Below are positions 3,960-62,216 of a stretch of DNA of 64,000 nt, in pieces. The notes beneath the pieces are model-generated. The model saw only the letters and a program-made list of their open reading frames with translations, was not told where the DNA came from and made no database searches. A program made the translations under genes and the position numbers. This DNA comes from Escherichia phage vB_Eco_F31: the sequence record OP870147.1; one strand, 5' to 3'. Position 1 is the stretch's first letter; each line of letters starts with the position of its first letter.

Positions 3960-3983
3960 TCTTAATTGATTAAATCTTATTTT

Positions 3984-4008
3984 GGGAGACTTCGGTCTCC
4001 CATTTTTG
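3984..4008 (+). terminator. Intrinsic terminator after gene 23 (UUCG tetraloop hairpin + U-tract)
   Basis: GGGAGACttcgGTCTCCCatttttgg. Confidence 0.75.
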
Positions 4009-26405: not shown

Positions 26406-26417
26406 AATTTCCTCAGT

Positions 26418-26433
26418 GGGAGCCGAAGCTCCC
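26418..26433 (-). other. Intercistronic UUCG hairpin between two 30.x genes, no U-tract
   Basis: Minus strand GGGAGCuucgGCUCCC directly upstream of RBS GAGGA. Confidence 0.5.
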
Positions 26434-26440
26434 AATTAAT

Positions 26441-26834: not shown

Positions 26835-26876
26835 TTGGTACAGGTCTATAATAACATAACCTGTACCAAAGTAAAC
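26835..26876 (-). promoter_or_regulatory. Early promoter with perfect 10-bp inverted repeat flanking the -10
   Basis: Plus TTGGTACAGGtctataataacataaCCTGTACCAAagGTAAAC; minus GTTTAC-N17-TATTAT. Confidence 0.55.
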
Positions 26877-27320: not shown

Positions 27321-27356
27321 ATCTTTTTAAACTTTTTCTGCCCTAAACGCACAAAA

Positions 27357-27374
27357 GGGAGACCGAAGTCTCCC
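27357..27374 (-). terminator. Terminator after the 59-aa basic protein gene
   Basis: Minus strand GGGAGACuucgGUCUCCCuuuugug. Confidence 0.65.
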
Positions 27375-27379
27375 TAAAA

Positions 27380-31586: not shown

Positions 31587-31587
<1 letters not shown>
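31396..31587 (-). CDS. Hypothetical protein
   Basis: 63-aa ORF directly downstream of pseT with overlapping stop/start. Confidence 0.45.
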
Positions 31588-32673
<1,086 letters not shown>

Positions 32674-32674
<1 letters not shown>

Positions 32675-32973
32675 TATTTGATTCCTAAGAAAGCTTCAAG
32701 AATACGAATGTTGAGTTCGCGCCGGTCTTTATTAATTTCAGCAACGTTTTTATTAATTGACGTACTTCTAACGTTTGAAGAAATAAATTTAATCATATGA
32801 CTTTTGAGTTGTTGCAAATCCAACCCTTTTTCTTTAGCAGCTTTACGAAGAGCTTTACCTGCTTCATCTAGTGCTTTTGCCGCATCTTTATCATAATTGC
32901 CAAGTGACATTCCGCGGCAGATATCAATATACTCATCAGACCGTTTGATGTAATTCTCTAGTAATGTTTTCAT
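32674..32973 (-). CDS. Hypothetical protein
   Basis: 99-aa ORF with early promoter 32997-33031 upstream. Confidence 0.5.
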
Positions 32974-32996
32974 TTAGATTTCCTCAATTATCCATA

Positions 32997-33031
32997 GGAG
33001 CATTATACTCTGCTCCCGAGAGTTTGTAAAC
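32997..33031 (-). promoter_or_regulatory. Early promoter with 6-bp inverted repeat flanking a consensus TATAAT
   Basis: Plus GGAGCAttatactcTGCTCCcgagagtttGTAAAC. Confidence 0.55.
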
Positions 33032-33255
33032 TATTTTACTAAAGATTCAATATACTCATGAAGAGCTTTAGTCGCTACTGCCCACTTATTCTGATATTCA
33101 TTTTTCAGATTAGCACGAGACTGAACTAACAAGCGGTCATTAGTCGGAGGCAAAGATTCTAATCGTTGAATCTGGCGTCCATAAATCATAGCCGCCATTT
33201 CAGATTCATAGATAAGCCCTTTAATGTATTCATGCTGTTCTTTAGTCATTGGCAT
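33031..33255 (-). CDS. Hypothetical protein
   Basis: 74-aa ORF. Confidence 0.45.
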   Translation of the reverse strand: MPMTKEQHEYIKGLIYESEMAAMIYGRQIQRLESLPPTNDRLLVQSRANLKNEYQNKWAVATKALHEYIESLVK

Positions 33256-42057: not shown

Positions 42058-42096
42058 GATAGGGCTACTATAACATAACCCTATCTTGTTATAAAC
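42058..42096 (-). promoter_or_regulatory. Early promoter with 7-bp inverted repeat flanking the -10
   Basis: Plus GATAGGGctactataacataaCCCTATCttgttATAAAC. Confidence 0.5.
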
Positions 42097-42577: not shown

Positions 42578-42595
42578 GGGAGACCGAAGTCTCCC
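42578..42595 (-). terminator. Terminator after gene 32
   Basis: Minus strand GGGAGACuucgGUCUCCCuuuuga, identical hairpin to 3984, 27357 and 50902. Confidence 0.7.
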
Positions 42596-50901: not shown

Positions 50902-50925
50902 GGGAGACTTCGGTCTCCCATTTTT
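50902..50925 (+). terminator. Terminator after gene 35
   Basis: GGGAGACttcgGTCTCCCatttttg. Confidence 0.75.
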
Positions 50926-54728: not shown

Positions 54729-54734
54729 GGAGAA

Positions 54735-54754
54735 GGGACTTCGGTCCCTTTTTA
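54735..54754 (+). terminator. Terminator/attenuator hairpin between genes 37 and 38
   Basis: GGGACttcgGTCCCttttta. Confidence 0.6.
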
Positions 54755-59134: not shown

Positions 59135-59161
59135 TGTTTTGTGAGGAAAAAATGCACAAAA

Positions 59162-59177
59162 GGGAGCCAAAGCTCCC
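59162..59177 (-). terminator. Terminator after gene 52
   Basis: Minus strand GGGAGCuuugGCUCCCuuuugugc. Confidence 0.6.
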
Positions 59178-59253
59178 TAATCATGTTTGTCCAACCAATA
59201 TAGCCAAATCACTAGTGCAGCTATTGCACTGAGAAATCCTAAGGCTAGGGCAC

Positions 59254-60870: not shown

Positions 60871-60922
60871 TTTAATTACCTCAAAAATAAATTAAAGGCC
60901 CAACTTAATAGGCCCGTATAAA

Positions 60923-61369
60923 TTAGTAACTCTGCAGAATGAATTTGAAATTATCAGCCAGAAGACGGTTCATTTCAGTGAGTGTTTGATATTCTGATGT
61001 ATGGTTGCGAGTGAATGTCAGAGCCAATTGACCTTTACCATAACCAGTGGTCAGTGGTTTCATGTTCTTAGCTGCAACAAAGATTACATCATATTCAATA
61101 TTGTTAGTGCCCATGGTACGGGCTAGTTGCGAACGGCCTTGACGAATGTGAGAAAGAATTGCATCCAACCCTTGTTTAGAACGTTGACGTCCTACAAAGA
61201 ATCGTGCTGCTACTTGTCGCCAATCAGATGAACCTTTAACAAAGAAGTAAAAACCTTCACGAGAACGAAACTCTTTAGAAACTTCAGAACCGTATTCACC
61301 ATTACGAACTACTGCAACAACTTCACCACCAACTGCCAGAAGGTCTTTACGAGTTAAATATTTGGACAT
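60923..61369 (-). CDS. ndd: Nucleoid disruption protein Ndd
   Basis: 148-aa ORF with ...FYVGNQRSKQG..A.LSHIRQ.RSQLART...KMKPLTTG.GKGQLAL.FTRNH.SEYQTL.EMNR.LADNFKF.LQ.Y matching T4 Ndd. Confidence 0.92.
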
Positions 61370-61406
61370 GCTAATTTCCTCAATTGATTAATGTTTTTGT
61401 AATCCA

Positions 61407-61441
61407 TGAGAGCATTATACTCTGCTCTCAAGAGTTTGTAC
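61407..61441 (-). promoter_or_regulatory. Promoter for ndd with 8-bp inverted repeat flanking a consensus TATAAT
   Basis: Plus TGAGAGCAttatactcTGCTCTCAagagtttgtac; -35 is TTGTAC rather than GTTTAC. Confidence 0.45.
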
Positions 61442-61445
61442 AATT

Positions 61446-61646
61446 TTATTCGGCTATATCAGAACGTTCAAAAAGCTCTTCAACAGTTAAACATTCAGTG
61501 TCATCTTCAATAAAGAATCGAGTCCAACACGTTGGGGCGATACAGTTATGAGTTTGTCCGGCGATAGAAGCTACACGAATAAGCTGCTGGCCATTATTCA
61601 GGACAAATTTTTCACCAATTTCAACATCTTTAAAAAGCTTAGCCAT
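61446..61646 (-). CDS. Hypothetical protein
   Basis: 66-aa ORF with early promoter 61667-61704. Confidence 0.5.
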   Translation of the reverse strand: MAKLFKDVEIGEKFVLNNGQQLIRVASIAGQTHNCIAPTCWTRFFIEDDTECLTVEELFERSDIAE

Positions 61647-61666: not shown

Positions 61667-61704
61667 GTAGGACTACTATACCATAATCCTACCTTGTTGT
61701 AAAC
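61667..61704 (-). promoter_or_regulatory. Early promoter with 6-bp inverted repeat flanking the -10
   Basis: Plus GTAGGActactataccataaTCCTACcttgttGTAAAC. Confidence 0.5.
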
Positions 61705-62179: not shown

Positions 62180-62216
62180 TAGGACTACTATATCATAGTC
62201 CTACTTAGTTGTAAAT
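62180..62216 (-). promoter_or_regulatory. Early promoter with 7-bp inverted repeat flanking the -10
   Basis: Plus TAGGACTactatatcatAGTCCTActtagttGTAAAT. Confidence 0.45.

Follow-up and report, generated by a model that had tools for sequence, protein, structure and literature searches.

The stretch of DNA analysed here, hereafter the window, comprises 64,000 nt of Escherichia phage vB_Eco_F31 (OP870147.1), a Mosigvirus (RB69)-like phage of the T4 type whose sequence around ndd is 95-99% identical to APCEc01, JS09, and their relatives. Two similar promoter elements, designated A and B, occur in regions where all genes are located on the minus strand, and each starts where a co-directional upstream ORF ends, at its stop codon. 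Element A serves ndd (148 aa; 60923-61369, minus strand), and element B serves a 99-aa ORF resembling RB69ORF231c (32674-32973, minus strand), which is located two genes upstream of pseT (31587-32486, minus strand); the original prediction had likewise assigned the two promoters to ndd and to a hypothetical gene near pseT. By sequence, both are T4-type early promoters with the TATAAT -10 box that had been claimed for them.

Read on the minus strand, element A consists of TTGTAC, aaactct, the 5′ arm TGAGAGCA, the loop gagtataa, the 3′ arm TGCTCTCA, and tggat. Upstream of TTGTAC lies aaaa, and TGCTCTCA is followed by tggattacaaaaac and, further on, by gaggaaattagc and the ATG of ndd. The -35 box TTGTAC, in the frame of the T4 early GTTTAC, occupies 61438-61443, and the corresponding sigma-70 frame TGTACA occupies 61437-61442; TGTACA-17-TATAAT agrees with the sigma-70 pattern at 10/12 positions. 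Directly upstream of the -35 box are an abutting A-rich tract (gccgaataaaa) and the stop codon of a 66-aa ORF (61446-61448), and the intergenic interval extends from this stop to the ndd ATG at 61369. The 5′ arm (61423-61430) lies in the promoter spacer, at about -23 to -16 from the predicted start, and the -10 box (61414-61419) lies within the 8-nt loop (61415-61422), its final T being the first base of the 3′ arm (61407-61414). The last base of that arm, A 61407, is the predicted start, as judged from the -10 spacing. On the plus strand, TGAGAGCA corresponds to 61407-61414 and TGCTCTCA to 61423-61430. The stem of 8 bp brackets the -10 box (-14.6 kcal/mol, z = -3.7). One nucleotide past the hairpin is the RegB-like motif GGATTACAAAA (61395-61405; 10/11 against GG*A(G/U)RAYARAA), and the Shine-Dalgarno (SD) sequence of ndd, GAGGA, is at 61377-61381. 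A terminator-like hairpin, GGGCCTATTAAGTTGGGCCT, with a T-rich tail (T-run) lies just past ndd (60896-60915, minus strand), in contrast to the promoter hairpins, which are devoid of a U-tract.

Element B reads, on the same strand, GTTTAC, aaactct, cGGGAGCA, gagtataa, TGCTCCta, and tggat, with aata upstream of GTTTAC and with tggataattgaggaaatctaa and the ATG of the 99-aa ORF (at 32973) after TGCTCCta. Its -35 box GTTTAC (33026-33031) shares a G with the TAG stop (33031-33033) of an upstream 74-aa pseT.1-like ORF, is abutted on its upstream side by the A-rich tttagtaaaata, and forms part of an 11/12 sigma-70 match, TTTACA-17-TATAAT. The 5′ arm GGGAGCA (33011-33017) and the 3′ arm TGCTCCT (32996-33002) form six Watson-Crick pairs plus, in the sense strand, the wobble G33017·U32996; on the plus strand, GGAGCA is found at 32997-33002 and TGCTCC at 33011-33016. 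This stem also brackets the -10 box (33002-33007, inside the loop gagtataa), with -13.7 kcal/mol and z = -2.6, and the start predicted from the spacing is A 32995. The RegB-like motif GGATAATTGAG (32983-32993; 9/11 against the RegB consensus) again lies 1 nt past the hairpin and overlaps the SD of the 99-aa ORF, GAGGAAA.

The original prediction had drawn attention to a palindrome preserved by mirrored base changes between the two copies, and its arms are indeed present at 61407-61430 and 32997-33016. The core that it regarded as shared, CATTATACTCTGCT, occurs exactly twice in the window (61413-61426 and 33001-33014), and the elements share 36 of the 42 bases between -35 and +6; of the six differences, four lie in the arms. 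The mirrored A/T to G/C exchange corresponds to one true compensatory change, A-U in element A against G-C in element B. Outward of it, a G-C pair in A faces a G·U pair in B and the outermost U-A of A faces C/A, which leaves the longer stem in A (8 bp against 6 bp plus G·U), in agreement with the extension that had been pointed out for one copy. Nevertheless, two copies alone are weak evidence, because a mirrored pair arises in about 20% of trials (P ~0.2) when six differences are placed randomly outside the loop, and because 8-bp inverted repeats are common in this DNA (26 perfect ones with 3-14-nt loops observed in the window against 14 expected). The compensation is significant only once a wider family is included.

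This family was collected from IMG/VR viral contigs with patterns anchored on non-arm positions only (ACAAACTC-N9-GAGTATAA and two variants), followed by a filter for promoter context, TAC at -35 together with TATAAT. With the arms thus unconstrained, 22 distinct members with 12 distinct stems were recovered, such as GAGAGCA/TGCTCTC, GGGAGCA/TGCTCCC, GGGACCA/TGGTCCC, GGGGTCA/TGACCCC, and GAGGACA/TGTCCTC. An additional variant, GGGAGTA/TACTCCC, is located upstream of e.6 in phage GiZh. Copies precede 8 or more different genes, ndd, motB, e.6, and the ORF of the pseT region among them; those upstream of motB and e.6 are found in Tequatrovirus. A wider search, with 1264 places in 731 phage records, points to several hundred family copies. 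Family members have 5-8 Watson-Crick pairs of 8, compared with 0-5 in 40 distinct chance matches to the anchors. In the 22-member alignment, paired cells amount to 96.0%; shuffles gave 83.4% (0/500), and sliding the partners gave 36-57%. The covariation score is 0.514 against 0.247 in shuffles (0/500), and this shuffle control takes no account of phylogeny among members related by descent. Double substitutions are found at 5 of the 7 core pairs, and the pair 19-32 occurs as GC, CG, AU, and UA. The eighth, outermost pair is unpaired in 6/22 members, so the conserved stem comprises 7 bp. The covariation shown here indicates that pairing of the hairpin is under selection, which is what the original prediction had argued from two copies, and its proposed check, matched arm substitutions in relatives, gave a positive result.

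Stems around the -10 box are not confined to this family. Among 114 distinct T4-like early promoters in the fetched loci, 25% have a stem of at least 7 bp bracketing the -10 box, compared with 1.3% after the left and right halves were swapped between promoters. A second promoter class, GTTTACAAC...TATAGT, displays the same arm covariation, with the arms GGAACAT/GTGTTCC, GGGATAT/GTATCCC, GGACTAT/GTAGTCC, and GGGTCAT/GTGACCC. The position of the stem relative to the -10 box differs by promoter class, some stems lying between -35 and -10 and others reaching +7. In the window, four more early promoters on the minus strand have their -10 box bracketed by stems of unrelated sequence: TAGGACTA/TAGTCCTA (62180-62216), GTAGGA/TCCTAC (61675-61704), GATAGGG/CCCTATC (42058-42096), and TTGGTACAGGT/ACCTGTACCAA (26835-26876). 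[quoted passage not shown] Tetraloop hairpins of the GGGAGAC-uucg-GUCUCCC type, with near-identical stems, were also observed at many places across the window (3983-4002, 26417-26434, 27356-27375, 42578-42595, 50902-50919, 54733-54750, 59161-59178, and others) and look like a repeated hairpin family of their own. An Rfam scan of the whole window gave zero matches at the gathering score.

The imperfect pairs of the family indicate which strand pairs. Over the 7 core pairs, the sense strand has 143 Watson-Crick pairs, 10 G·U pairs, and 1 other, whereas the antisense strand has the same 143 Watson-Crick pairs, no G·U, and 11 mismatches. The G·U pairs represent approximately 4-5 independent events, with no A·C pair (one-sided p ~0.03-0.06). 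In the other promoter-bracketing hairpins, 11 interior non-Watson-Crick pairs are G·T/T·G and 3 are C·A, and the C·A pairs are confined to helices that are weak and doubtful. Since single transitions should yield both types of wobble equally, this bias implicates the gene-sense strand as the one that pairs, in the simplest case as RNA. The most likely place for the pairing to act is read-through RNA and not promoter DNA, with the reservation that the non-template DNA strand would give an identical G·U asymmetry. A function of the antisense strand was rejected, as each wobble pair turns into a C·A mismatch there.

The same data bear on whether a dimeric DNA-binding protein might use the palindrome as an operator and thereby regulate this subset of early promoters. 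A palindrome centred on the -10 box would be at a typical operator position, and the mechanism by which T4 early promoters are shut off is said to be unknown. However, the arms are unconserved: a single family has 12 stems, and each of the four Watson-Crick pairings occurs at one position. Strand-asymmetric wobble, moreover, would be meaningless for recognition of a duplex. The operator reading was rejected as very improbable, in that the arms covary instead of remaining conserved half-sites.

Comparison of the ndd leader across lineages separates the hairpin from the promoter. Promoter and hairpin occur together upstream of ndd in Mosigvirus, Yersinia phage YenM_P8, and Dhakavirus QL01, with different arms in each. 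In the T4-type phage RB59, Karamvirus EnC15, and a Klebsiella phage, a hairpin is present without a recognisable promoter, 32-37 nt before the ATG, and two of these three promoter-less leaders (Karamvirus and the Klebsiella phage) have UUCG tetraloops of the GGGCC-uucg-GGCCC type. In five lineages, the 3′ end of the hairpin and the ndd ATG are 36-37 nt apart; the distances in the other two are 32 and 42 nt. As the hairpin is kept across genera even where the promoter is missing, it is a conserved feature of the ndd leader for which the promoter is optional. In Serratia phage CHI14, approximately 30-70 nt upstream of ndd, TTGCTTTA is followed after 12 nt by TATGAT, and this -10 box is bracketed by the hairpin CGGACAT/ATGTCCG; the CHI14 leader is thus an apparent MotA-box middle promoter with a hairpin, which would be a 'PmSL'-like arrangement in the place taken in other genera by an early-promoter hairpin. 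The annotated ndd start of CHI14 appears to be misplaced downstream by 18 nt.

At the pseT locus, the orthologue of the 99-aa ORF overlaps the upstream gene in Tequatrovirus and Gaprivervirus, with no cassette between them; this organisation, with the cassette absent, was seen in RB32, teqhad, VR25, and MHG19. A cassette of the same family is present at the pseT locus of Bp7. On this comparison of loci, the cassette is an indel at pseT, and its presence or absence from locus to locus fits a mobile or exchangeable promoter cassette. In the Bp7 record (NC_019500), the CDS F392_gp055 (456-791 of the retrieved locus) takes as its start an ATG that is made by the -10 box and 3′ arm of a promoter of this family, tataATGctccta. 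This start codon is probably mis-called, and the start orthologous to that of the window ORF would lie further downstream.

With both the strand bias and the promoter-less leaders in view, it can be asked whether pairing could act in DNA, where a non-template hairpin or cruciform might present a single-stranded -10 box to sigma-70, somewhat as in phage N4, or might mobilise the cassette as a hotspot of recombination or cleavage. The non-template strand has the sequence of the RNA, and the G·T asymmetry is compatible with it. Nonetheless, we consider this distinctly unlikely: the stem position varies by promoter class, against one fixed geometry for RNA polymerase; the promoter-less orthologues have UUCG tetraloops, pointing to RNA, in which the UUCG loop is exceptionally stable; and arms of 7-8 bp with an 8-nt loop extrude poorly as a cruciform. 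A hotspot would fit the available text of the two papers on the "promoter-early stem-loop" (PeSL) class, in which crossovers in or next to the stem-loop are reported and a stem-binding recombination protein is speculated upon (PMC2839356, PMC4122927).

It is also conceivable that the compensation is mutational instead of selective, template switching at a quasi-palindrome having copied one arm from the other while the pairing itself is functionless. Mutation templated by quasi-palindromes is documented and was first characterised in T4, and it would give perfect arms, as in element A. Such copying would nevertheless leave unexplained that G·U among the imperfect pairs occurs in the sense strand only, that hairpins of unrelated sequence occupy the same leader position in other genera, and that stems bracketing the -10 box are enriched 20-fold over the swap null. 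We therefore regard it as highly unlikely.

A further question is whether the hairpin is an efficient intrinsic (Rho-independent) terminator, which would halt all transcription from upstream and make each gene wholly dependent on the embedded promoter. In the available text of Arbiol et al. (2010, PMC2839356), one RB49 PeSL stem-loop lowered expression of downstream lacZ about as much as rrnB T1, and in phage ASO78A the family copy that precedes motB was labelled a rho-independent terminator by an automated pipeline. On the other hand, no U-tract follows hairpin A or B (UGGAUUAC and UAUGGAUA; tails TGGATTAC and TATGGATA), and a terminator scan lists neither element, although it flags the hairpin and T-run past ndd. 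The promoter-less lineages, moreover, keep the ndd-leader hairpin at the same spot and presumably transcribe ndd through it, so the hairpin is probably not an efficient terminator, and this reading is unlikely.

The explanation that we favour, with a probability of roughly 0.6, is that each site is a composite PeSL cassette, in which an early promoter is combined with an overprinted hairpin that acts in read-through RNA from upstream. The cassette sits between two co-directional early genes, a 7-8-bp hairpin being overprinted on a strong sigma-70-type T4 early promoter. In sigma-70 promoters, the spacer and the stretch between -10 and the start are the parts freest to vary. Here the loop carries the -10 box, and the arms fill the spacer and positions -6 to +1, so that both signals fit into approximately 40 bp. 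Because the predicted start coincides with the final base of the 3′ arm, the hairpin should be confined to read-through RNA coming from the upstream gene; for element A, such RNA could come from the promoter at 61704 across the 66-aa ORF. The literature on T4 start-site and 3′-end maps yielded nothing usable for the predicted start or for read-through.

In the composite cassette, the hairpin may function as a stem-loop between the cistrons, either by marking or protecting the 3′ end of the preceding message or by attenuating read-through, and the embedded promoter would restart transcription for the downstream gene; to name the hairpin an 'attenuator' or a '3′-end protector' is a guess. Elements A and B would be nearly identical because a single promoter cassette has spread to numerous loci among T4-like phages, which fits recombination-mediated PeSL shuffling.

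A possible third component follows the hairpin. The strong-site consensus of the RegB endoribonuclease is GG*AGRAYARAA (Uzan and Miller 2010, PMC3014915). Every hairpin-bearing family member has GGA(G/U) and an A-rich run 1-2 nt past the 3′ arm, with 8-11 of 11 positions matching this consensus, and the same motif is found after the promoter-less hairpins of the T4-type, Karamvirus, and Klebsiella phages and in the Serratia ndd leader. For comparison, 1.9% of GGAK sites in the window score at least 10 against the consensus. A hairpin followed by GGA(G/U) is not a general rule in the window, since 4/264 hairpins show it, which equals the random expectation; the RegB-like motif is thus special to the subfamily and the ndd leader. 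Two differences from strong RegB sites were noted, namely that the family motif is not in the SD, yet the motif of element B overlaps the SD GAGGAAA, and that position 5 is often U instead of a purine. The regB gene is presumably outside the window, if the gene order is as in T4.

These positions suggest that RegB cleavage adjoining the hairpin may define a message boundary. A tripartite cassette of promoter, hairpin, and RegB site, in which mRNA boundaries would be set post-transcriptionally and not by termination, is possible but doubtful. RegB would cut at GGA(G/U) 1-2 nt past the hairpin, and the upstream message would keep a protective 3′ hairpin. The downstream read-through copy, and possibly also the RNA started by the promoter itself (at +2 to +5), would receive a 5′-OH end, and such ends could then be turned over via T4 polynucleotide kinase and RNase E/G. 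This arrangement would account for the missing U-tracts at the hairpins and, if true, would provide early genes with a portable 'insulate and time-limit' module.

Whichever role the hairpin has, the palindromes overprinted on T4-type early promoters are subject to real selection for pairing, most likely as RNA, and illustrate how two signals can share about 40 bp, with the -10 box in the loop and the arms in the promoter stretches that vary most freely. They also aid annotation. The same element is elsewhere called a terminator, called a promoter, or used for a start codon in public records; MZ726795 (617-664 of the retrieved locus) and NC_054903 (603-631) annotate the family inconsistently, with a rho-independent terminator before motB in one record and a host-like promoter before e.6 in the other. 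In addition, the family offers a clean natural set of compensatory variants for testing the function of PeSL hairpins.

Several known systems resemble these elements in part. Intrinsic terminators likewise close a cistron with a GC-containing hairpin but differ in the U-tract, which is missing here. The early promoters of phage N4 are DNA hairpins recognised by the virion RNA polymerase; they share the combination of a promoter with a short hairpin-forming inverted repeat, but there a DNA structure is read by a dedicated phage polymerase, whereas here the promoter is of the ordinary sigma-70 type and the stem position varies by class. Intercistronic hairpins of the C(UUCG)G type in T4 mRNAs, reportedly described by Tuerk et al. 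in 1988, are also short, stable, and located between early cistrons, and the UUCG hairpin of the Karamvirus and Klebsiella phages occupies the ndd-leader position of the promoter-hairpin. They differ in that the loop here is the 8-nt -10 region instead of a tetraloop and in that the element is also a promoter.

By their features, elements A and B match the published PeSL class; they are of an already described type, here in a Mosigvirus-like genome, and do not reveal a new kind of system. PeSL cassettes have been reported in RB49/phi1 (Arbiol et al. 2010, PMC2839356) and in T4/PST and KVP40/nt-1 (Comeau et al. 2014, PMC4122927). According to the available text of these papers, the stem-loops mostly lie between -35 and -10 or overlap -10, the cassettes recur in hyperplastic regions and have been linked to indels, the stem-loop was proposed to terminate or attenuate upstream transcription, and the ndd region is among the examples of exchange. 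As far as that text describes the class, the likeness extends to the A-rich tract, the sigma-70-type early promoter with boxes about 17 bp apart, the stem-loop over -10, the SD and ATG, and the placement between the stop codon of one gene and the SD/ATG of the next. Also shared are the numerous similar copies in each genome, which adjoin places where relatives differ in gene content (at least 8 genes preceded by the family here, with the cassette absent in RB32, teqhad, VR25, and MHG19), and the T4/PST consensus TTTACW-N17-TAYWAT, which fits both elements. As regards differences, the Mosigvirus (RB69)-like genome is outside the coverage of the available text of PMC2839356 and PMC4122927, in which no mention of the GGA(G/U) and A-rich motif was found, and the stems are not of the G-run/C-run type given there for RB49. 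Relative to that text, the RegB-like motif 1-2 nt past every hairpin of the family is an unreported detail, and its conservation directly past the hairpin sets this subfamily apart from the PeSLs described there.
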